Source: Escherichia phage KS_S9. From it: a stretch of DNA of 44,983 nt. Made by a program: the position numbers and the translations under genes. The notes under the pieces are model-generated. The model saw only the letters and a list, made by a program, of their open reading frames with translations. It was not told where the DNA came from and did no database searches. Below, one piece after another: positions 1,991 to 44,983 of this stretch. The DNA is taken from sequence record PP920551.1. The stretch is one strand, 5' to 3'. Position 1 is the first letter of the stretch. Every line of letters starts with the position of its first letter.

Positions 1991-3511
1991 ATGACCGTTA
2001 ACGTTGACAACCAGCACCCACTTTATGCGCGCATCGCGCCAGAGTGGAAGATGATCCGCGATTGTGTGGCAGGGGAGCGCGCCGTGAAGGCGTGCGGCCC
2101 TTTGTACCTGCCTCATCCCGCCAGTGGAGACAATACTGACCCGAAATCGCGGGCGCGGTATAAGGCGTACAAGCAACGCGCTGTATTCCTGAACGCCACC
2201 GCCCGCACACTTAACGCGCTGTTAGGCGTTGCCTTTGCTAAACCGGTAAGTCTGGACCTTTCCGGGGCGATGGCTGACCTGATTGACGACGTAGACGGCA
2301 GCGGTATGCCTCTGCCGCAACTACTGCGCGGTGCTATGTCGGAAGTGCTGCAATCAGGCCGTGCGGGCTTTATGGTGGACTACGATCGCCAGGCGCATTT
2401 TGATGAACTGGGTAACGTAGTTCCGCAGACAGCCGCCGAGATGGCGTCACACCGCCCGCTTATCCGCCTGTACACGGCAGAACAGATCATCAACTGGCGG
2501 CAGACCCACGGCGTCGATACGCTAATTGTGCTGAAGGAAACGGACGAAATCAGCACCGAAGACCCGGACGACTTCGCAAACCACGAAGTAACAATCTGGA
2601 CCGAGCTTCGCATGATTAACGGTGCAGCACACGCCCGCCGCTGGTACTACAACGCGGACACGTCCGAGGTGCAAATGGATTTGCCGCGTGGATTCACCCG
2701 CACCGACCTGGTGCCGCTGGTGGATGCCTCCGGTAATGCGCTTACACAACTTCCGTTTTGCTGGTGTGGTGCGGTGGACAACAACGCAACGCCTGACGCC
2801 GCTCCGCTGGCGGATATCGCGTCCATCAACATTAAGCACTACAACGCCGAAGCGGACGTCGCCGAGATTGCGCACATCGTGGGCCAACCTACCCTCGTTG
2901 CGACGGGCTTGACTCAATCATGGGCGGACAAAAACCTGAAGGGCGGCATTGCCCTCGGTGCGACTAAGGGCGTTATCCTGGGCCAGAACATGGACGCTAA
3001 ACTGATCCAGGCGGAGGAGCGCAACTTGTCGGTTGCACTGTGTGAGCGTCGCGAATTGCAAATGGCTAAACTAGGCGCAGCCCTGGTCGAGAAGGGGACC
3101 GCACCTAAGACGGCAACCGAGGCGGCCTACGATGCGCAGACTGATAACAGTATCCTGTCGCTTATTGCCGGTAACGTTGAGAAGGCTTTCAACCGTGCGC
3201 TGCAAATCGTCCAGCTATTCACGGGCGACACCGCCGACCAGCGCGTAACGCTGAACAAGTTCTACACCGAAATCACGGTTGATGCGCAGCTTATGACCGC
3301 GATGATGTCGGGGGTGCAGACTGGCACGGTCCGCCTGGCTGACTTCATCAAGTGGATGATGGCGCAGGGCGTCATCGACGACTCGCAAACTGTCGAGCAG
3401 GTGGAAGACGAATTGCGAAATCAGAATCCATTGCCTCAAATGTCCCCTGATGCGGTAGAATCTACCGAAGAAGACCCGGACAAGGTAGCGGACAATGGCG
3501 AAGACAATTAA
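1991..3511 (+). CDS. Portal protein
   Basis: 506 aa ORF immediately after large terminase, acidic C-terminus, AGGAAA RBS; gene order terminase-portal-head morphogenesis. Confidence 0.8.
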   Translation: MTVNVDNQHPLYARIAPEWKMIRDCVAGERAVKACGPLYLPHPASGDNTDPKSRARYKAYKQRAVFLNATARTLNALLGVAFAKPVSLDLSGAMADLIDDVDGSGMPLPQLLRGAMSEVLQSGRAGFMVDYDRQAHFDELGNVVPQTAAEMASHRPLIRLYTAEQIINWRQTHGVDTLIVLKETDEISTEDPDDFANHEVTIWTELRMINGAAHARRWYYNADTSEVQMDLPRGFTRTDLVPLVDASGNALTQLPFCWCGAVDNNATPDAAPLADIASINIKHYNAEADVAEIAHIVGQPTLVATGLTQSWADKNLKGGIALGATKGVILGQNMDAKLIQAEERNLSVALCERRELQMAKLGAALVEKGTAPKTATEAAYDAQTDNSILSLIAGNVEKAFNRALQIVQLFTGDTADQRVTLNKFYTEITVDAQLMTAMMSGVQTGTVRLADFIKWMMAQGVIDDSQTVEQVEDELRNQNPLPQMSPDAVESTEEDPDKVADNGEDN

Positions 3512-4598
3512 TCAATATTTGGCGGATCGAATGATTCGCCGTCACATCTTCACCCAGCGCCTGAGCAATGATCAGGCGCGGAGGGTGCTGGCTATGTGGG
3601 AGAAGTTCCGGCCCGCTTTACTGGGTAAGCTGACCGAGTTACTTGATGGCAAATCGTCAATGAATAACAAGGCACTTTCCACTCTGTTAACGCAACTCGA
3701 CAAGACCGTCAAAGCGGAACTGCGCACCGAGTTTAAGGCGCTGGCTGAAAGCCTTCAGGAGTTCGCCGACACCGAGGCTGATTATCTTGCCGACACATTA
3801 ACGGCAGCGATCCAGCCCGCGGTCGCAGTGCCTGCGGTTGAGGTGGTGGGTGTAGTGACCGGGGCACAGATCGCAGCGACGGCGATGAAAAACCCGTTCC
3901 AGGGTAATACGATGATGCAATGGCCTGACTCACTTTCTGAGTGGACCAGGACGCAGATCGGGAATCAGGTGCGCGCCGGATTCATCCAGGGCAAGCCGAC
4001 GATGGAAATTATCGCGGATGTGAGGCGCGCGCTAGGCGGTCGTAGTGCGCAAGCAATCTCAAGCGTTGTTAAATCCGCAGTCAACCACTATGCGGCTACA
4101 GCCCGCGAACTAATGGTAAAAGCAAATGACGATATTCTCGAAGGTCGCCAATGGTTATCTACATTGGACACGCATACTTCTCCCATGTGCCAGCTACGCG
4201 ATCGCCTGTTTTATCCGGTTGATGCTACTCCCGACACCAAAGGAAAGCGCGGCGGGAAAATGGTGGCTGGGTCACAATATGGCGCTGGTCCGGGCAAGTT
4301 GCATTATTGTTGCCGGTCGACGGAGACGTGGAAGGTTAAAGGCATGGAAGATTGGCCCAGTGGTAAGCGTCCGGCACTGAAGGCTGACGCGGGTCGATTG
4401 CTGAGTGAGCAGGTCGACGCGCAGACTGATTTCTTCTCATGGGTGCAGCGCCAGCCGCGCCATATCCTGGAAGAATTATACGGAGTGCAACGCGCCGACC
4501 AGATTATGCGCGGAGTGAAAGTGCCGAAGATGTTCACCGATTCCGGCGAACTAATGACTATCGCACAGCTTAAAAACCGGGGGTTATGGCGTGATTAA
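3495..4598 (+). CDS. Head morphogenesis protein (Mu F / SPP1 gp7-like minor head protein)
   Basis: 367 aa following portal; contains HYCCRS, resembling the HxNCRC signature of F-like minor head proteins. Confidence 0.7.
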   Translation: MAKTINQYLADRMIRRHIFTQRLSNDQARRVLAMWEKFRPALLGKLTELLDGKSSMNNKALSTLLTQLDKTVKAELRTEFKALAESLQEFADTEADYLADTLTAAIQPAVAVPAVEVVGVVTGAQIAATAMKNPFQGNTMMQWPDSLSEWTRTQIGNQVRAGFIQGKPTMEIIADVRRALGGRSAQAISSVVKSAVNHYAATARELMVKANDDILEGRQWLSTLDTHTSPMCQLRDRLFYPVDATPDTKGKRGGKMVAGSQYGAGPGKLHYCCRSTETWKVKGMEDWPSGKRPALKADAGRLLSEQVDAQTDFFSWVQRQPRHILEELYGVQRADQIMRGVKVPKMFTDSGELMTIAQLKNRGLWRD

Positions 4599-4920
4599 AT
4601 ATGCAGCGATTGGACTGGTTATCGGTCTGGCGGTAGGATTCTGGCTAGGCGACTCCTATCGTACTGGCGTAGTGGCGGAGGCGGCGCAAGAAGCGCAAGC
4701 CAAAGCCCAACGGCAGCAAACTAAAGTTGTTGAGCGCTCCGTGCAGGCCGAACAGGCCCGCGACGTAGAATACCGGACTATAACGAAAGAGGTTGTTAAA
4801 TATGTTACGCGCCCTAACCGCCCTGATTGTAGTTTTGATGCTGAGCGCGTGCGGATCAAGCAACGTGCCGTTGATGCCGCTAACGGAGTCGGCACTGCGA
4901 CCGCCGTGCAAGTTCGATAG
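4591..4920 (+). CDS. Rz-like inner-membrane spanin (i-spanin)
   Basis: GTG start with GGGGG RBS; N-terminal TM segment (AAIGLVIGLAVGFWLG) then Q/A/E/R-rich helical region; a lipoprotein ORF is embedded in its +1 frame. Confidence 0.6.
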   Translation: MIKYAAIGLVIGLAVGFWLGDSYRTGVVAEAAQEAQAKAQRQQTKVVERSVQAEQARDVEYRTITKEVVKYVTRPNRPDCSFDAERVRIKQRAVDAANGVGTATAVQVR

Positions 4921-5032
4921 CCCGTCCTCAGACCCCGACGAGGATTTGATGATTGACGTGAAAAATATGGAATGCGGGGCGAAGCTAAGGGCGCAGGTGT
5001 TGGAGTTGCAGCAAATAATTAAGGGGCCGTGA
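4802..5032 (+). CDS. Rz1-like outer-membrane lipoprotein spanin (o-spanin)
   Basis: Signal peptide MLRALTALIVVLMLSAC with lipobox LSAC; short Pro-rich mature part; starts inside the Rz-like ORF in another frame and extends past its stop; AAGAGG RBS. Confidence 0.65.
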   Translation: MLRALTALIVVLMLSACGSSNVPLMPLTESALRPPCKFDSPSSDPDEDLMIDVKNMECGAKLRAQVLELQQIIKGP

Positions 5033-5044
5033 TGGCCCCCTTTT
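5023..5044. terminator. Bidirectional intrinsic terminator between convergent genes
   Basis: GGGGCC-gtgat-GGCCCC hairpin followed by TTTT on plus strand and T-rich run on minus strand; lies between Rz1 stop and stop of minus gene 5047..5811. Confidence 0.6.
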
Positions 5045-5046
5045 CG

Positions 5047-5811
5047 TTAGCGCGGAATACCGCAAATCTCGTTTAACGTCTTCACGTCCAGCGCCACCGC
5101 CGTGGACTTCGGCTTGTCCGGGTAAGGAATGAACTGTTCCACTTCAGGCCACGCCTTGATCAGCTTCTTATCTGTATTGTGCATATCCAGCACGCCGGTA
5201 ACAGTTAGTTTGAACGCGTCATACTTAGCACGTAACTCACGGCGGGCCTTGTCGTTACGGTCCAGGCGCTTACAGAAATCATGGTCCGCCGGGTAGTCTA
5301 TACGACCGCGTGGCATGTATATCGGCAGCGCTTTCCCGTCGTCGTCGACTTCGCACACTGACGCTAACAAAATTTCCTCATACCCTGGCACAATATCGCC
5401 GAGATCGGGAGACAGTTTATTCATGTATTTATACTCCCAGTATCCGCGATGTACTCGGAATCGGTGTCCGTCTCCGCTCAATGACACGGTACGGACGTTT
5501 CCGCCGGCGTTGATTTCGAAAGTGGCGTCATAAACGCGGCCGATACCATACGGGCGGTCAGCGTTATAACTATACGTCGCCTTGTTGGTGTATACACTTA
5601 CTCCGTACATCTGCGACGGGTCATCGCCGATTGCTTTAATGCGCGCGAGTAGCTCGGCGAAAGTGCGAATGCCTTCCGGCATACAGTCCAGCGTAATGGC
5701 GTACGCAAGGTCGCGAGAGTCCATCATGATGGATTTTGCTTCGGTCGCGATTTCATGGTCGCGCAGGATGTTAGCCAGAATCTGGTTTTTAATGTCTTTT
5801 GTCAGTCTCAT
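5047..5811 (-). CDS. Hypothetical protein, minus-strand orphan gene inside head module
   Basis: 255 aa from ATG 5811 with GAGGA RBS; the longer ORF-track version (to 6258) is a low-complexity extension overlapping the scaffold gene. No family recognised. Confidence 0.55.
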   Translation of the reverse strand: MRLTKDIKNQILANILRDHEIATEAKSIMMDSRDLAYAITLDCMPEGIRTFAELLARIKAIGDDPSQMYGVSVYTNKATYSYNADRPYGIGRVYDATFEINAGGNVRTVSLSGDGHRFRVHRGYWEYKYMNKLSPDLGDIVPGYEEILLASVCEVDDDGKALPIYMPRGRIDYPADHDFCKRLDRNDKARRELRAKYDAFKLTVTGVLDMHNTDKKLIKAWPEVEQFIPYPDKPKSTAVALDVKTLNEICGIPR

Positions 5812-5959: not shown

Positions 5960-6661
5960 ATGAAACTTACTAAAGCAGAATATGACGCGTTGCCGGAAGG
6001 TATGAAGGCGCTTTTTGTTGCCGATGGCGACGGGTATAAATCAACTTTCATGACCGCAGAAGAAGTACAGGCGGAAATCAAGGGTCTGAAAGACAACAAC
6101 GCGAAGCTGGTGAGCGAGAAGAAAGCAGAAGCTGAACGCCGCGCCGAAGCCGAGCGACTTGCGAAAGAGAAAGAGGAAGCCGCTGCGCGCAAAAATGGCG
6201 ACCTCGAAGCGATCGACAAGTCCTGGAAAGATAAGTTTGCTAAACACGAAGCAGACACAGCGGGAAAAATCGAAGCCTACCGCAAGCAGATCCACGATCT
6301 AACCATCGGCAGCGCTGCCAAAGACCTGGCATCGAAGCTATTCGGTAAGAATGCCGGCATCATGCAACGCCACGTAATGGACCGTCTGACGCTGGAAGAC
6401 GGCGAAGACGGCAGCTTGAAAGTGCGTGTCTTGCAGGATGGCAAACCGTCCGCGCTGACTATGGAAGAGTTAGAAAAAGAGTTCCGTAATAACGCCGATT
6501 TTGCATCCGTCCTGGCTGGCACGCCAGCCGGTGGCGCGCCTAGCAAACCGACGCAGGTTGTCGAAGATGTGAAGTCTAAAATTACGATGGGCCATAGCTT
6601 CGGTATCACCGATCTCACCAAACAGGCCGGTGAAATCATCGCTAAAATGGGTGACGAGTAA
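5960..6661 (+). CDS. Putative head scaffolding protein
   Basis: 233 aa from ATG 5960 (AGGGGGA RBS); A/E/K/R-rich predicted coiled coil (AEAERRAEAERLAKEKEEAAARK); directly upstream of major capsid gene. Confidence 0.6.
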   Translation: MKLTKAEYDALPEGMKALFVADGDGYKSTFMTAEEVQAEIKGLKDNNAKLVSEKKAEAERRAEAERLAKEKEEAAARKNGDLEAIDKSWKDKFAKHEADTAGKIEAYRKQIHDLTIGSAAKDLASKLFGKNAGIMQRHVMDRLTLEDGEDGSLKVRVLQDGKPSALTMEELEKEFRNNADFASVLAGTPAGGAPSKPTQVVEDVKSKITMGHSFGITDLTKQAGEIIAKMGDE

Positions 6662-6666
6662 GCAGA

Positions 6667-6690
6667 TTGCCCGCGAAAGCGGGCAATTTT
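6667..6690 (+). terminator. Hairpin/attenuator between scaffold and capsid genes
   Basis: TTGCCCGC-gaaa-GCGGGCAA followed by TTTT. Confidence 0.5.
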
Positions 6691-6758
6691 GCGAGCGCGT
6701 AAAACTAAGGTAACATTAATGCCACTGGGCGAATGCTCACAACTCAAAGGATTTCGAT

Positions 6759-7859
6759 ATGTCTTTAACAGTGTTCCAGCGTAAACTCGTTACCGCGGTT
6801 ACGCAAATGATCCCCGACAACCTGAACGTATTCAACGCTGCCGCCAATGGCGCTGTTGTTCTCGGTACTGGTGAAGTGCTGAAGGATGTTATTGAGAAAA
6901 TGTCCGTAGGCTTGATCGCCAACCTCGTTACCGACCGTAACGCCTACGCCCCTGTCGGCACTCCGGCAACCGCGAAAGTGCTGGCGCGTATGCTGACCAA
7001 CTCGGTTAACCTTTCCGCAAAAGTGGGTCCGGTAGCAATTACGAAGGCCATGATGGCTAAAATCGAAACCAACGTTAACAGCGTTGCGGCTGAGATTGCG
7101 GCGCAGGCTACTCAAGCGATTATGCTGCACTACCTGAAAGCGGGTATCGGCGCAAGTAAAGCGGCGATCGAAAGCAACGCAGCGGCAAAATACACCCAAC
7201 CGGCGCGCGTTGACGGCGTTGGCGGTCGTACCTTCCCGACCCTGGCAGACTTCCCGCTGGCGGCTTCTAAGTTCGGCGATCAGGCGTCTTTGATTAAGTC
7301 CTGGTTTATGGACGGCGTTACCTGGGCAAACTTCATTGCGTACCAGGCACTCCCTTCCGCTGAACAGGTATTCGCAATTGGCGATCTCCAGGTAATGGGC
7401 GACGGCCTGGGCCGTCGCTTCATTATCTCCGATGCCGCTGCCGATGCTATGGGTGCGGGCAACATGCTGGGTCTGGTCCCTGGCGCGGTTGCAGTTACCA
7501 CCAACGGCCTCGACATGCTGGCGCAGGAAAAAGGCGGCAACGAGAACATTGAGCGCTGGTGGCAGGGTGAGTTCGACTTCAACGTGGCTGTTAAAGGCTA
7601 CCGTCTGAAGGCGTCCGCTCGTACACCGATCGAAGGCGTCCGCTCGTTCAAGCTGTCGGATATCACCACTTCCGATAACTGGGAACTGGACCAGGGCCAG
7701 GTAGACAACGCACCGGCAACCGTGCAGGACGTTGGCGCTGTGGGTGATGGCGATACTAAAGGCCGTCGTAAGACCCAGGCAGCACAGGCAGTGCCGACCC
7801 GTCACATCAAGGAAACCGCTGGCGTACTGGTTACGCTGACGGCGACTACCGCGTCTTAA
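6759..7859 (+). CDS. Major capsid protein
   Basis: 366 aa after scaffold gene, AAGGA RBS, followed by strong terminator; position and size typical of an HK97-fold major capsid protein. Confidence 0.75.
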   Translation: MSLTVFQRKLVTAVTQMIPDNLNVFNAAANGAVVLGTGEVLKDVIEKMSVGLIANLVTDRNAYAPVGTPATAKVLARMLTNSVNLSAKVGPVAITKAMMAKIETNVNSVAAEIAAQATQAIMLHYLKAGIGASKAAIESNAAAKYTQPARVDGVGGRTFPTLADFPLAASKFGDQASLIKSWFMDGVTWANFIAYQALPSAEQVFAIGDLQVMGDGLGRRFIISDAAADAMGAGNMLGLVPGAVAVTTNGLDMLAQEKGGNENIERWWQGEFDFNVAVKGYRLKASARTPIEGVRSFKLSDITTSDNWELDQGQVDNAPATVQDVGAVGDGDTKGRRKTQAAQAVPTRHIKETAGVLVTLTATTAS

Positions 7860-20674: not shown

Positions 20675-20977
20675 ATGGCATTCGGTATCGCAACGTGGGA
20701 CGCGCAAGGACGCCCAAACAACTACGGCATTAAACCGGTAAGCGTGATCGGAAGGATTCATCTTGCGGAAGGACAAAAATCAGGCGCATGGTCATTCCCT
20801 GTACCGGCGGGGATGAAGGTCGGATACGTGGTCGCACTGGATAAAGGCGCGGTCGGGCCAGGACGCAGAATCACCGCCAGCGGGAACACTATCACGGTTT
20901 CCGCAGCAAGTGAGGTTGGTGGCGGGGTTTACTCCGCATCTGAATGTGACGTTATTGTTTTTGTGGAGCGAGCATAA
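20675..20977 (+). CDS. Hypothetical protein
   Basis: 100 aa, GAGG RBS, ATG 20675; downstream of J-like gene; no signal peptide seen. Confidence 0.45.
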   Translation: MAFGIATWDAQGRPNNYGIKPVSVIGRIHLAEGQKSGAWSFPVPAGMKVGYVVALDKGAVGPGRRITASGNTITVSAASEVGGGVYSASECDVIVFVERA

Positions 20978-21651
20978 TGGCTAATTACGGCGCGTTGATT
21001 GACTTACCAAACGGCAACCCGTTTATCACGCCAGAATCGACGCCGTTTTGTCTATTCCGCCGTGTGGTTGTTGGGTCTTCGGCTAACGGCACTGCGCAGT
21101 CGGCGGCTGCCGATATTAATTTGGGAGGTGACTACCCTGCAATAGCGTTTGTGAAAACTACGCACACCGCCCAGCCGACCGTCGTAGGGTCTTCTCGCGT
21201 TGGTAATGTGGTGAAGGTGAGCGCCAGCAATCCATTCAGGCAGGGCTTCACGATGACGGCTTACATCTTTGCTATATTCCCACAGACCCTTCCGCGGTGG
21301 GGCTTCGCTATCTGGGATAAGACGGGGAAGCTAGTGCTTACTAATGAGAGTCGCGTACTAAGTGATTTAGTTACCGTCGGATCGCCAGGCGCTAACGGGG
21401 GGATTAACATTGACCAGACGCTAAACGGCAGCTACGCCGTCGCTCCGGGCATATTGGGGTCTACGCTGATCCGGTTTTTTGTGCAGGGCCAGCCGCAAGT
21501 AATATCAGTAACGGCGTACACGGGGGCCAGATTTGATGGGTCGCGAACGCGTATATCGGCAGCGTCGTCGGGGAACGCCACGGGGGGTGTGGTGGGGTAT
21601 ACTAACAACGGCAACGCGATTATGGCGATTAACACCGCCAATTATGATTGA
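20977..21651 (+). CDS. Hypothetical protein (possible tail-associated)
   Basis: 224 aa, TAATG overlap with preceding gene; Gly/Ser/Thr-rich; no family recognised. Confidence 0.45.
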   Translation: MANYGALIDLPNGNPFITPESTPFCLFRRVVVGSSANGTAQSAAADINLGGDYPAIAFVKTTHTAQPTVVGSSRVGNVVKVSASNPFRQGFTMTAYIFAIFPQTLPRWGFAIWDKTGKLVLTNESRVLSDLVTVGSPGANGGINIDQTLNGSYAVAPGILGSTLIRFFVQGQPQVISVTAYTGARFDGSRTRISAASSGNATGGVVGYTNNGNAIMAINTANYD

Positions 21652-21653
21652 AG

Positions 21654-21676
21654 AAAGCCCCGAAAGGGGCTTATTT
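21654..21676. terminator. Bidirectional terminator between 20977..21651 (+) and lipoprotein gene (-)
   Basis: AAGCCCC-gaaa-GGGGCTT hairpin, T-rich on both sides. Confidence 0.5.
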
Positions 21677-21889
21677 GCAGGTTGTGCTTTTGAAGTGGTC
21701 GACCGACACATACTGGAAGTTGAACGGATACCCAGCCTTGAGCATTTTGTGTCCACTAAAGTCGGCAACCCCAAACACCGGGACCGAGTATTCCATGCCG
21801 CTATTAACATATGTCGCGTCGCAGACTTTAGTCGGCATGTTGGCACAACCAGACAAAAGAACCGCACAAATCATAATTAAAGTTTTCAT
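21671..21889 (-). CDS. Small outer-membrane lipoprotein, Cor-like superinfection exclusion candidate
   Basis: 72 aa from ATG 21889 (GGGGA RBS): signal peptide MKTLIMICAVLLSGC with lipobox LSGC; opposite strand, between tail-tip genes and tail fibre. Confidence 0.55.
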   Translation of the reverse strand: MKTLIMICAVLLSGCANMPTKVCDATYVNSGMEYSVPVFGVADFSGHKMLKAGYPFNFQYVSVDHFKSTTCK

Positions 21890-26125: not shown

Positions 26126-26591
26126 GTAACTCACTCTCGCTCATTATTTCAATTTGTGCGCTGCCGATTGGTGGCGCTTCGTCAAAGATTATCAATTGCT
26201 GGCACTTGTTATTGCTCGGCCCGACTTCACCGGTGACGGCGTGAATGAATCTAATCCGCCAGTCCAGAAGAATTATCAGGTTTGCAGTCTTCCGGGCCAG
26301 CCTCGCCCACTTCGTCGACGTGTCCTGATTCAGTAGCATGACAGTCCGGCGACCGTGCGCTGCGCATTCCACCCACGGCAGCGGGTCGGAATACGGCGGA
26401 TTGCACCACTTCCACCCTTTCAACTCGGACCAGTCCACATCAAGCGCGCTGTGTTCCGCCGTGAAGTAACGCGGTAGCAGGTGGTTTGCATCGCTTGCCG
26501 CCATATCGTAACGGAATCGGTACTTCCGACGAAGCGGTTTAAATAAAGCTGGCGGCGTGCGCCAGCTATCTTTTTGCTCACTCTTCTGCAT
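26106..26591 (-). CDS. DNA N6-adenine methyltransferase (phage Dam family)
   Basis: 161 aa; WRTPPALF near N-terminus, DMAASDAN and NPPYS (motif IV-like) match the small phage Dam family pattern. Confidence 0.8.
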   Translation of the reverse strand: MQKSEQKDSWRTPPALFKPLRRKYRFRYDMAASDANHLLPRYFTAEHSALDVDWSELKGWKWCNPPYSDPLPWVECAAHGRRTVMLLNQDTSTKWARLARKTANLIILLDWRIRFIHAVTGEVGPSNNKCQQLIIFDEAPPIGSAQIEIMSESELHEYLNR

Positions 26592-42074: not shown

Positions 42075-42092
42075 TTATGCAAGCGTGATATA

Positions 42093-42126
42093 GTCCCAGT
42101 GAGCTAAAACTTACTGGGACTTTTTT
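42093..42126 (+). terminator. Hairpin with T-run before the holin gene
   Basis: GTCCCAGT-N12-ACTGGGAC followed by TTTTTT, ending at the holin ATG. Confidence 0.4.
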
Positions 42127-42417
42127 ATGGATAAGCTAAACGAGTGGTTATTTGCCCTCGCATGTCTGGCAGGCGGCTTCGTAGGCGCACGCATTCACGG
42201 CGAGGCTACGAAAGGGCCGCTAAACTTCGTGTTATATATCGTAGTTGGCTTCCTGTGTGCCATCTTTGGTGCGCCAGCTATCGCCGAGTGGGCTGGCTTA
42301 TCTGGCGAGCGCACTGTCGCCGGTTTGGGCTTCGTAACTGCAATCTTCTGGATGACAATAGCAGCCCGGATCAGGGAGACTATTGAGTCGTTCCGACTTC
42401 CGGGGGGCGCAAAATGA
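42127..42417 (+). CDS. Putative holin
   Basis: 96 aa with 2-3 predicted TM segments, charged C-terminus; directly upstream of endolysin. Confidence 0.5.
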   Translation: MDKLNEWLFALACLAGGFVGARIHGEATKGPLNFVLYIVVGFLCAIFGAPAIAEWAGLSGERTVAGLGFVTAIFWMTIAARIRETIESFRLPGGAK

Positions 42418-42659
42418 TTATCTCCGTCCTGTTGTTTGTTATCATAGGGGCTTCGTCCCTGTTTAATGTGTATGCGCCGTCCGTCCAGGATGGCATTTTA
42501 GGCCGGGTGTTATATCTGCTAACGGCGATGATCTGCGTTATCGGATTGTTGCAAACGGGAGACGTATCAGACACCACCTGGACCGCGTTAATCTGGCTGT
42601 TTGCATTGCGCACACTGCGTAATGCTGTTTTGAATGGGGTAAAACATGCGATTCAGTGA
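42414..42659 (+). CDS. Putative holin or antiholin (second membrane protein)
   Basis: 81 aa, GGGGGG RBS, 2 hydrophobic segments; ATGA overlap with preceding gene, overlaps endolysin start. Confidence 0.5.
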   Translation: MIISVLLFVIIGASSLFNVYAPSVQDGILGRVLYLLTAMICVIGLLQTGDVSDTTWTALIWLFALRTLRNAVLNGVKHAIQ

Positions 42660-43137
42660 CAACGGTCTAAGATTTACGGCAGCATGGGAGGCTTTCAGCC
42701 CGGTGCCGTATTTCGCGACCAAGAAAGAGCAGGCCCGCGGCCTGTACACTTGGGGTTATGGTCATACCGGCACTAATCCGCCTCGAAGCATTACCCGCGA
42801 GGAAGCGCTGGCACTGCTCAAGCGCGATGTGGCGTATGCTGAGGACTGGGTGAACAAATACGCACATCCGAGCATTAACCAGGCGCAATTCGACGCGCTG
42901 GTGGACCTGGTAATCAACGCCGGTCCGGGTCCGATCGTACCGGATGACGTCGCGAATGATTTCGATGATGCGGTCCGCCTGGGCGACTGGGCGAAGGTAC
43001 GTGCTACTCTGCCGCAGTTCCGCAAGCAAGGTGGCGAAGTGCTTAAGGGTCTGGTGCGCCGTGCAATCGGCAGACAGGCGTTGTTTGATGGTAAGCAGTG
43101 GGACGTTGCCGAGAAAATCGGTCGTAACGCTGCATAA
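42646..43137 (+). CDS. Endolysin (T4-lysozyme-like muramidase, GH24-like)
   Basis: 163 aa; pattern LYTWGYGHTG...QFDALVDLVINAGPG resembles phage lysozyme family. Confidence 0.8.
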   Translation: MRFSDNGLRFTAAWEAFSPVPYFATKKEQARGLYTWGYGHTGTNPPRSITREEALALLKRDVAYAEDWVNKYAHPSINQAQFDALVDLVINAGPGPIVPDDVANDFDDAVRLGDWAKVRATLPQFRKQGGEVLKGLVRRAIGRQALFDGKQWDVAEKIGRNAA

Positions 43138-43327: not shown

Positions 43328-43352
43328 AAGCCCGGAATTAACCGGGCTTTTT
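43328..43352 (+). terminator. Intrinsic terminator
   Basis: AGCCCGG-aattaa-CCGGGCT followed by TTTT. Confidence 0.55.
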
Positions 43353-43416
43353 ATTGCTTGACTCGCAACCAACACAGGGGCCATACTGCAACCAATCAAC
43401 TGGAGGAGTAATCAAG

Positions 43417-43497
43417 ATGGCACGTAAAGATATTTGGGTATTAGCGATCTGGACCACCGCGGCTTTTATCGGCATGGTTATTTGCGAATTGATATAG
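43417..43497 (+). CDS. Putative 26-aa hydrophobic peptide
   Basis: MARKDIWVLAIWTTAAFIGMVICELI with GGAGGAG RBS 7 nt upstream; promoter-like TTGACT and GCAACCAAT motifs upstream. Confidence 0.3.
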   Translation: MARKDIWVLAIWTTAAFIGMVICELI

Positions 43498-43558: not shown

Positions 43559-44701
43559 ATGCACCCGCAAACTAAAATCACCGACGAGCAATTGATTGCC
43601 GAGTTGCAATCCGGCACTACCGCGAAAGAGATTGCGAAGAAGTACGGCCTTTCCCTACGAAATGTCTACATGCGCAAAGCCCGCCTGTCGAAGAAAGGTA
43701 TTGGTCACGGTAACGATGCCGTAATCCGTAAGCGCGTTGCCGATGGCTTCGGCGTTAAGCGCGTATCCGCCCTGGTGCGCGGCAATGGCGAAGAGGTCAT
43801 GTCGTGGGTTATCACAGAGCAGGACAAGGAGCGCCAGCTTGAAGCAATGCGAGCCGTTGTCGAGGGTATGAACAGCGAAATCACACCGGCAGCACCAGTA
43901 AGCGCCCCACCAGTCCCGATCCAGGCACTTGACCTACTCAACCTGTACACCGTGTCAGACTTCCACCTGGGCATGTTGGCATGGGGCGAGGAGACTGGCG
44001 AAGACTGGGATATGGCGATCGCCGAAGACCTGTTCTACCGCTGGTTTGTCGAAGCCTTCGCACGCGCACCGGACGCAGGCACTGCCGTAATTAATATTCT
44101 CGGTGATATGGCGCACTTTGATAGCCTCGATGCCGTCACCCCAGCCAGCGGGCACGTACTGGACGCGGATACTCGCTACCAGAAGCTGGTCCGCTACATG
44201 ATTCGCATGGTGCGCAACGTGGTGGAACTGGCGCTGCAAAAACACCACAAAGTCAAACTGCTAATCGTCCAGGGGAATCATGACGAGTCTGGTATGATTT
44301 GGCTGGCTGAAATGTTCAATACGCTGTACGAGAACGAGCCACGCGTCGATGTGGATACGTCCCCGGACGTGTACAAAATGGTGCAACACGGTAAAACCAC
44401 GCTGTTCTTCCACCACGGGCACAAAGCACGTTTTGACGCTATTGAAACCGTCATGATTTCCAAATTCAGACAGGCTTTCGGGTCCAGCGAGTACAGCTAC
44501 GCACACGTAGGCCACTTGCACCACCAGAAGATTGTAGAATCCCGCAACATGATTGTTGAACAGCACAGGACCCTAGCCGCGAAGGACGCATATGCCAGTC
44601 GTGGCGGTTGGATGTCCGGTCGCAGTGCCAACGTAATCACCTACAGCGCCAACTACGGCGAAGTAGCGCGCTTAACCATTAGCCCGGAAATGTTGAAATG
44701 A
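43559..44701 (+). CDS. Calcineurin-like metallophosphoesterase (Mre11/SbcD-like or Ser/Thr phosphatase-like) with N-terminal HTH
   Basis: 380 aa; motifs SDFHLG, GDMAH, VQGNHDE, HHGHK, GHLHH typical of metallophosphoesterase fold; N-terminal TAKEIAKKYGLSLRNVYMR HTH-like. Confidence 0.65.
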   Translation: MHPQTKITDEQLIAELQSGTTAKEIAKKYGLSLRNVYMRKARLSKKGIGHGNDAVIRKRVADGFGVKRVSALVRGNGEEVMSWVITEQDKERQLEAMRAVVEGMNSEITPAAPVSAPPVPIQALDLLNLYTVSDFHLGMLAWGEETGEDWDMAIAEDLFYRWFVEAFARAPDAGTAVINILGDMAHFDSLDAVTPASGHVLDADTRYQKLVRYMIRMVRNVVELALQKHHKVKLLIVQGNHDESGMIWLAEMFNTLYENEPRVDVDTSPDVYKMVQHGKTTLFFHHGHKARFDAIETVMISKFRQAFGSSEYSYAHVGHLHHQKIVESRNMIVEQHRTLAAKDAYASRGGWMSGRSANVITYSANYGEVARLTISPEMLK

Positions 44702-44910
44702 TCAGACAAGTATTCATGAGCACGCAGGCGGACCGCCTGAAGGAACTACGCAAGCAACTCGAAGGCTTACGCCGATTCGAGCGAACGTCAGCGGCAATCG
44801 GCATGTCTATCAGTGAGCGGATCGAGATACTATCGCAAATACGCTACACAGAAGGCGCTATAAGCGAAGTAGAAAGCATGTTAACCCGATACTACGGTCG
44901 CGCCGTTTAA
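44698..44910 (+). CDS. Hypothetical protein
   Basis: 70 aa, ATGA-coupled to upstream gene; followed by terminator. Confidence 0.45.
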   Translation: MIRQVFMSTQADRLKELRKQLEGLRRFERTSAAIGMSISERIEILSQIRYTEGAISEVESMLTRYYGRAV

Positions 44911-44917
44911 CCCTCCT

Positions 44918-44944
44918 AGCCCGCCGATTTGGTGGGCTTTTTTG
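44918..44944 (+). terminator. Intrinsic terminator
   Basis: AGCCCGCC-gattt-GGTGGGCT followed by TTTTTT. Confidence 0.55.
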
Positions 44945-44948
44945 TGCC

Positions 44949-44957
44949 TGTTATAAT
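44949..44957 (+). promoter_or_regulatory. Possible extended -10 promoter element upstream of terminase genes
   Basis: TGTTATAAT (TGnTATAAT) right after the terminator and ~70 bp upstream (across the window junction) of the TerS start. Confidence 0.25.
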
Positions 44958-44983
44958 CCCCTTAGATGGCAGGGCCGTCTCCT

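Follow-up and report, generated by a model that had tools for sequence, protein, structure and literature searches.

The locus described here raises the question of how a coliphage comes to carry a putative spanin pair at the end of its head genes, several kilobases away from the holins and the endolysin, and whether the two groups of lysis genes are also transcribed apart. The window, by which we mean the whole analysed stretch of 44,983 nucleotides (Escherichia phage KS_S9, PP920551.1), reads as one complete genome of a Dhillonvirus (HK578-like) coliphage. A 3-kb stretch around the spanin pair matched 158 phage records, nearly all of them from Escherichia or Shigella Dhillonvirus (HK578- or SO-1-like siphophages) at 90–95% identity, with the closest records being 95% identical over the 3 kb. 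The join between the end and the start of the window is contiguous in the records of numerous relatives, such as BMA1 (99.2%), and for dhillonviruses headful packaging with terminal redundancy has been reported, terS being placed first by the convention of the authors. Thus, the window is a complete genome in which the genome junction is only the coordinate origin. The sequence-only reading that preceded this work had separated the lysis genes across the genome junction; the location across the origin was correct, but the junction itself is an arbitrary coordinate convention.

The membrane protein that had been proposed as one half of an Rz/Rz1-type pair, following a head morphogenesis gene, is indeed encoded at this position (Table 1). 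Its hydrophobic N-terminus, IKYAAIGLVIGLAVGFWLG, is followed by a charged domain rich in Ala, Gln and Glu. Hydrophobicity is confined to the N-terminal ~20 residues, and the other 87 residues are 31% charged, a distribution for which type II topology is predicted. Single-sequence AlphaFold2 modelling gave, at low confidence (mean pLDDT 58), helices at residues 3–72 and 84–97 and a linker at 73–83, with the transmembrane segment falling inside the first helix. For the i-spanins of the Dhillonvirus subfamily, Kongari et al. (2018; PMC6139136) predicted two helices and one beta motif. In a cross-genus alignment, Cys80 is invariant in five genera-level representatives, and so is an ITxxVxKY...PxRxxCxF core. 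The GTG start shares 8 nt with the stop of the head morphogenesis gene, an overlap that is also found in relatives, and translation of the i-spanin is probably coupled to that of this gene.

Table 1 Positions of the lysis genes, their coding features and the candidate transcription signals in the window
Feature	Position	Strand	Remarks
Head morphogenesis gene, directly upstream of the i-spanin gene	3495..4598	+	phrog_241 at 1.8e-117
i-Spanin gene (Rz equivalent)	4591..4920	+	109 aa, GTG start; phrog_2536 'Rz-like spanin', E = 4.9e-37
Codons of the single N-terminal transmembrane segment, i-spanin residues ~4–20	4600..4650	+	Kyte-Doolittle 17-residue maximum 1.95
o-Spanin gene (Rz1 equivalent)	4802..5032	+	76-aa precursor, ATG start, +1 frame relative to the i-spanin; phrog_5672 at 3.9e-26, phrog_1267 at 5e-11
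Dual-coding overlap of both spanin genes, 119 nt	4802..4920	+	Lowered synonymous divergence
o-Spanin lipobox L-S-A-C, Cys17 predicted to be lipidated	4841..4852	+	[LM][ST]AC in all Dhillonvirus relatives
Bidirectional terminator-like hairpin at the end of the terS-to-spanin block and of the convergent Nmad5 gene	5023..5039	both	dG -13.4 (+) and -15.6 (-) kcal/mol
Terminator-like hairpin directly before the holin ATG	42092-42121	+	dG -20 kcal/mol
Holin-family gene 1, 96 aa	42127..42417	+	phrog_2359 holin at 3.5e-31; annotated as holin in Bas18 and Bas84
Holin-family gene 2, 81 aa	42414..42659	+	phrog_2508 holin at 1.1e-26
Endolysin gene, lysozyme family	42646..43137	+	PF00959 at 9e-21; phrog_7 at 4.8e-36
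Terminator-like hairpin 3' of the endolysin cassette	43328..43349	+	dG -15.9 kcal/mol, z = -4.6
Sigma-70-like promoter TTGACT-N18-CATACT, just past the post-endolysin hairpin	43358..43387	+	Consensus match
Terminator-like hairpin upstream of terS	44918..44938	+	dG -15.1 kcal/mol
Extended -10 promoter-like site TGTTATAAT, TTGGTG 17 nt upstream	44949..44957	+	Candidate promoter of the terS-terL-portal-morphogenesis-spanin block

The +1-frame lipoprotein with an LSAC lipobox, which had been suggested as the other half of the pair, was found as well. Its precursor begins MLRALTALIVVLM-LSAC-GSS, with MLRALTALIVVLMLSAC as the signal peptide, and by its sequence this N-terminus is a classic signal peptidase II signal, the mature lipoprotein counting 60 aa. 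Since the residue at position +2 is Gly and not Asp, sorting to the outer membrane is predicted. A GAGG motif lies 9 nt 5' of the annotated ATG start; a TTG at 4793 was considered as start codon and rejected because it leaves no spacing from the GAGG and is absent in several relatives. Proline makes up 7 of the 60 mature residues (11.7%), and six of the seven lie within the first 29 residues, so that only the N-terminal linker of the protein is Pro-rich. A single-sequence AlphaFold2 model of low confidence (pLDDT 56) showed a signal, a disordered linker and a C-terminal helix in the last third. The earlier description of a Pro-rich body therefore holds for the N-terminal linker, but not for the remainder, of which the C-terminal third is predicted to be helical. 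Alignment across genera showed Cys36 and Cys58 to be invariant and a D-E motif to be kept as well; the two cysteines match the 'Cys 45 and 67' given for the family by Kongari et al. (2018; PMC6139136).

The o-spanin gene had been called embedded, but it extends 112 nt past the i-spanin stop, and following the spanin nomenclature of Kongari et al. (2018; PMC6139136) the architecture is overlapped, with 119 nt shared by the two genes. Conservation and selection were examined with 18 Dhillonvirus loci from GenBank and IMG/VR, using pooled pairwise pN/pS values. The o-spanin reading frame, its lipobox and the two further cysteines are intact in all 18 loci. Outside the overlap, pN/pS was 0.16 for the i-spanin and 0.12 for the o-spanin in its own frame (4922–5029), as compared to 3.3 and 4.3 in the two control frames. 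Synonymous divergence was 0.105 (i-spanin frame) and 0.121 (o-spanin frame) in the overlap versus 0.28–0.34 in the single-coding parts, and such a reduction of the synonymous rate to half or less is as expected for dual coding. The combination of low pN/pS and suppressed synonymous change shows that both spanin genes are translated and under selection. That the +1-frame ORF is instead an untranslated chance product is extremely improbable: such a view can draw only on how often spurious overlapping ORFs occur in GC-balanced genomes in general, and it is opposed by the contrast between the pN/pS of the o-spanin in its own frame and in the other frames, by the lowered synonymous rate in the overlap, by the conservation of the ORF, lipobox and cysteines down to 21–45% identity in other genera, and by the GAGG 9 nt ahead of the ATG at 4802. 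Judged from these substitution patterns, there is purifying selection on both spanin frames and the pair is not due to chance.

The assignment of spanin function to the two proteins rests on homology, context and sequence features. Scans with Pfam and NCBIfam gave no model that matched either spanin or either holin, so that the family evidence for these proteins is carried by PHROGs only, and a sequence search of the PDB returned nothing related. The two proteins are 94–98% identical to proteins of JL1, EK99P-1 and others (98% for both JL1 and EK99P-1), and a tblastn search with the i-spanin returned 666 phage records, among them phages of Jerseyvirus and Kagunavirus as well as of Klebsiella and Serratia. 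Kongari et al. (2018; PMC6139136) placed EK99P-1, EP23, HK578, JL1, SSL-2009a and SO-1 in overlapped 'Jersey' i-/o-spanin families, and described the short subfamily 'EP23 to SO-1', as well as two cysteines that are constant in the o-spanin and a C-terminal helix that is conserved. In GenBank, genes at the same position are annotated as i-spanin and o-spanin in Bas18 and Bas84, the o-spanin also in Opt212, and the two genes carry spanin or Rz-like spanin annotations in EK99P-1 and Oekolampad too, although one or both are still listed as 'hypothetical protein' in many GenBank relatives. Further support for a role in lysis comes from gene context. In a distant relative (IMG/VR contig L024), both PHROG families are part of a canonical cassette, ordered holin-holin-endolysin-i-spanin/o-spanin, that immediately precedes terS, and in Klebsiella phage VLCpiS13d the homologue adjoins the endolysin and the holin. 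The PHROG matches, the published Jersey classification, the annotation of relatives and the cassette context in L024 thus all bear out the Rz/Rz1-type interpretation of the sequence-only reading. The spanin pair and its position in the head block are, in fact, already known, catalogued and conserved in Dhillonvirus; a literature search yielded no experimental study of a Dhillonvirus or Jersey-family spanin.

Small phage lipoproteins that are encoded outside lysis cassettes often are exclusion proteins, and the genome does carry a Cor homologue (21671–21889, - strand). One could therefore envisage the 76-aa lipoprotein as a Cor/Llp-like protein that acts in superinfection exclusion or receptor blocking, with an unrelated membrane protein upstream and no spanin being present. 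We regard this as very improbable, since the lipoprotein matches spanin PHROGs and not Cor, since in the Dhillonvirus loci its gene invariably overlaps that of a type II membrane protein, and since the spanin families of the pair occur in canonical holin-endolysin-spanin cassettes elsewhere. Moreover, the phage would be left with no spanin: no second spanin candidate was found in the genome, where Cor is the only other lipobox ORF with a family match. A second spanin or u-spanin was also sought beside the endolysin and discarded, as there is no lipobox ORF in that place and the small ORFs after the endolysin lack spanin features. As a joint explanation of these sequence data, it is highly probable that the two genes encode a two-component spanin of the 'Jersey' family, Dhillonvirus subfamily, which is unlinked from the cassette, would need to be made only late, and is probably transcribed with the head block from a promoter of that block's own. 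With the pair, the phage has a full set of lysis genes, namely two holins, an endolysin and the spanins. The finding has little significance beyond correct annotation, but automated annotation should seek spanins outside the lysis cassette in genomes of Dhillonvirus and Guernseyvirinae.

The pair shares with the Jersey Dhillonvirus subfamily (EP23, HK578, JL1, SSL-2009a, EK99P-1, SO-1; PMC6139136) the overlapped architecture and a short two-helix i-spanin with a short linker, as well as an o-spanin in which a flexible Pro-containing linker is combined with a pair of constant cysteines and a C-terminal helix that is conserved. There is no substantive difference, the phage being another isolate of the genus. 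More distant homologues, with 36–40% (i-spanin) and 42–45% (o-spanin) identity and likewise encoded by overlapped genes, are present in Jerseyvirus and Kagunavirus (Guernseyvirinae). In Salmonella phage Shelanagig, the genes gp8 and gp9 also belong to the head module, where the capsid morphogenesis gene and the scaffold gene flank them, with holin and endolysin ~8 kb upstream across the origin and annotated terminators between them; the announcement of that genome does not mention lysis genes. The spanin genes of Kagunavirus phiEc3 occupy the same slot of the head module. The Guernseyvirinae i-spanins are ~20 aa longer than the one described here, no antisense Nmad5 gene comes after them as it does in the window, and one to three small genes separate the morphogenesis gene from the spanins, which implies that in those phages the spanin is not directly coupled to the morphogenesis gene.

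The pair resembles Rz/Rz1 of phage lambda in functional class and topology, each consisting of a type II protein of the inner membrane and a lipoprotein of the outer membrane whose gene is read in the +1 frame. The lambda Rz1 gene is fully embedded and is placed right behind S and R in the cassette, whereas the o-spanin gene described here is overlapped and unlinked. Rz has 153 aa; mature Rz1, of 40 aa, contains a penta-proline run, and no helix is predicted for it. Published precedent for spanins that are unlinked from holin and endolysin is provided by PseT.3/PseT.2 of T4 (Kongari et al. 2018; PMC6139136), of which the o-spanin resembles the present one in that it is larger than lambda Rz1 and has a predicted C-terminal helix. 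In T4, however, the spanin genes are of the 'separated' type and fall into another sequence family, and all lysis genes are dispersed, while in the window only the spanins are displaced.

The established model of spanin action has been summarized by Kongari et al. (2018; PMC6139136). Along these lines, the i-spanin would be held in the inner membrane by its N-terminal transmembrane anchor, with a largely helical domain reaching into the periplasm, and the o-spanin would be exported and, once lipidated on Cys17, sorted to the outer membrane. Binding between the C-terminal regions of the two proteins would yield a complex that crosses the periplasm through the peptidoglycan mesh, in which C80 of the i-spanin and C36 and C58 of the o-spanin probably form intermolecular disulfides. 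Release of soluble endolysin by the holins would lead to degradation of the wall, after which the freed spanin complexes could collapse and fuse inner and outer membranes, as the last step of lysis. Since in such a model the peptidoglycan keeps the spanins inactive, they would only need to be made late and linkage to the holin would not be required, so that a position at the end of the head block can be tolerated and conserved. The unlinked position fits the model in which intact peptidoglycan restrains the spanins, and its conservation is a further natural example, next to T4, that tight co-regulation with the holin is not needed for spanins.

The holins and the endolysin had been located at 42127–43137, and two holin genes and a PF00959 endolysin gene were indeed found there. 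The endolysin lacks a hydrophobic N-terminus and can therefore be read as soluble and dependent on the holin. Between the stop of the endolysin gene and the start of the i-spanin gene, measured across the origin, lie 1846 + 4590 = 6,436 bp and seven genes, in agreement with the earlier estimate of ~6.4 kb; the spanin genes thus do not adjoin holin and endolysin as they would in a linked cassette of the lambda type. Bas84 and Bas18 have an identical Dhillonvirus gene map, and in the 2025 description of Dhillonvirus P78 the holins are genes 31–32, the endolysin is gene 33 and the spanin is gene 40.

For the question of separate transcription, promoter- and terminator-like sites were compared between the window, Bas84, mckay, Oekolampad and the divergent LM40P1; a literature search yielded no transcriptome of a Dhillonvirus or Jerseyvirus. 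The total numbers of such sites in these regions, scored as consensus matches, are near the shuffled expectation, so that only placement and conservation argue for function. The stem of the hairpin after the endolysin is kept in LM40P1 by compensatory changes (CCCGG/CCGGG to CCCGC/GCGGG), and the TTGACT and CATACT hexamers just past it do not vary among the five Dhillonvirus genomes, although their flanks diverge. In place of the hairpin before terS, LM40P1 has a different hairpin followed by a T-run. The TGTTATAAT site is kept in Bas84, mckay and Oekolampad; in LM40P1 its place is taken by TGATATAAT, shifted by ~10 nt. The hairpin that closes the spanin block is conserved in Bas84, Oekolampad and LM40P1. 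In Shelanagig, terminators are annotated in the same arrangement. This pattern of a conserved hairpin followed by a promoter argues for real unit boundaries, and it is plausible that the spanins are transcribed apart from the holin-endolysin cassette, using their own putative promoter (44949–44957) and terminator (5023–5039). If the hairpins and promoters work as such, there would be three units rather than the two that had been suggested, the third lying between the other two (43559–44910).

It appears rather doubtful that the same spanin pair is instead served by one long late transcript, running from holin and endolysin via terS to the spanins, with the hairpins at 43328–43349 and 44918–44938 being leaky or antiterminated. 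Such a transcript would resemble the single late transcript of lambda, which crosses cos, and every gene from 37484 round to 5032 is on the + strand. The holin start, furthermore, directly follows the strong hairpin at 42092–42121, which means that some transcription must pass or bypass terminators in this phage. On the other hand, the occurrence of a conserved promoter-like element after each of the two intervening hairpins is a signature of unit boundaries, and among the proteins scanned no antiterminator homologue was found, most of the small upstream genes being of unknown function.

Starting from separate transcription of the spanins, one may go further and regard the separation as a conserved regulatory design and not an accident, a proposal which we consider tentative and, on balance, rather unlikely. 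Three terminator-promoter modules would insulate the cassette from a packaging-head-spanin operon, and spanin dosage would be set by translational coupling to the head morphogenesis gene. The holin would be controlled by a hairpin with a dual role, terminating upstream transcripts and hiding the holin ribosome-binding site unless transcription starts at the overlapping -10 element. The three modules lie at 42086–42121, 43328–43387 and 44918–44957. Jerseyvirus shows the same design, made up of unrelated sequence.

The spanin families found in the window also occur in linked lysis cassettes elsewhere. In the IMG/VR contig L024, an i-spanin and an o-spanin of the same families as those of the window belong to a canonical holin-holin-endolysin (GH19-like)-spanin cassette, which is situated immediately 5' of terS. 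A homologous spanin pair adjoins the endolysin and a holin in Klebsiella phage VLCpiS13d, where about 1.5 kb separates the head-morphogenesis gene from the spanins 3' of it and the o-spanin ORF (7394-7639) carries no annotation. The linkage in these two sequences implies that over its history the spanin pair has been both linked and unlinked.

The slot between the o-spanin and scaffold genes is variable, with about 360 additional bases or one more small gene in some relatives; in Opt212 it is occupied by two different ORFs, and in Jerseyvirus it is empty. In the window, it holds an antisense gene for a protein with nucleotide modification associated domain 5 (Nmad5), which converges with the o-spanin gene on the common hairpin at 5023-5039.

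At the holin-endolysin side, a strong terminator-like hairpin (-20 kcal/mol) is present immediately 5' of the start of the first holin gene, and the sole Shine-Dalgarno-like sequence, GGGA, is contained within the 3' arm of the hairpin; the 5' arm is overlapped by the extended -10-like sequence TGATATAGT. A transcript initiated at TGATATAGT would lack the 5' arm, and thus neither termination nor masking of the ribosome-binding site would be expected at this hairpin. The arrangement of hairpin and -10 sequence may act as a gate for holin expression. In the divergent Dhillonvirus LM40P1, the stem is preserved by a compensatory additional C:G pair. The Salmonella phage Shelanagig (Jerseyvirus) shows the same layout in unrelated sequence: downstream of TATAAAT comes a hairpin whose 3' arm carries GGAG, and then a T-run and the start codon follow.

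Another hairpin, GATGGC-AGG-GCCGTC, is flanked by the candidate terS promoter on its 5' side and by the terS start on its 3' side. It may represent an element of the 5' UTR or be related to pac. Compensatory changes preserve it in LM40P1 (GGTGG...CCACC), and Shelanagig possesses an analogous hairpin (AGACGC...GCGTCT).

Between the lysis cassette and terS, a 380-aa protein is encoded that has a calcineurin-like, SbcD-type phosphoesterase domain. Helix-turn-helix matches at its N-terminus are weak (Pfam E 0.01-0.08), every one below the gathering score. The Shelanagig homologue, which is annotated as 'HTH-type regulator/nuclease SbcD', differs in strand and genome position. The tiny ORF MARKDIWVLAIWTTAAFIGMVICELI, located 3' of the conserved promoter-like site 43358-43387, is kept in the relatives Bas84, mckay and Oekolampad and is deleted from LM40P1.

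Three small envelope-protein genes are located near the tail fibre gene; in Bas84 and Oekolampad, this slot carries other genes on the opposite strand.

Locations of the features in the window and in comparison sequences
Feature	Location	Strand	Match or remark
Nmad5 gene	5047-5811	-	PF18757, 9.9e-56
Three small envelope-protein genes	20675-21889		between J-like tail tip and lateral tail fibre genes
'Outer membrane protein' gene	within 20675-21889		phrog_557
Membrane-associated protein gene	within 20675-21889		phrog_425
72-aa lipoprotein	within 20675-21889	-	Cor superinfection exclusion match; phrog_1119, 1.4e-27
Pre-holin hairpin and promoter-like overlap	42086-42129		comparison locus in Shelanagig (L029), 26512-26563
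Tiny ORF MARKDIWVLAIWTTAAFIGMVICELI	43417-43497		one hydrophobic segment
380-aa protein gene	43559-44701		SbcD-type phosphoesterase match; phrog_704, 2.9e-161
Small conserved hairpin before terS	44958-44983 and 1-22
Spanin-containing cassette, L024	1721-3457
Spanin-containing cassette, VLCpiS13d (L006)	6502-7639
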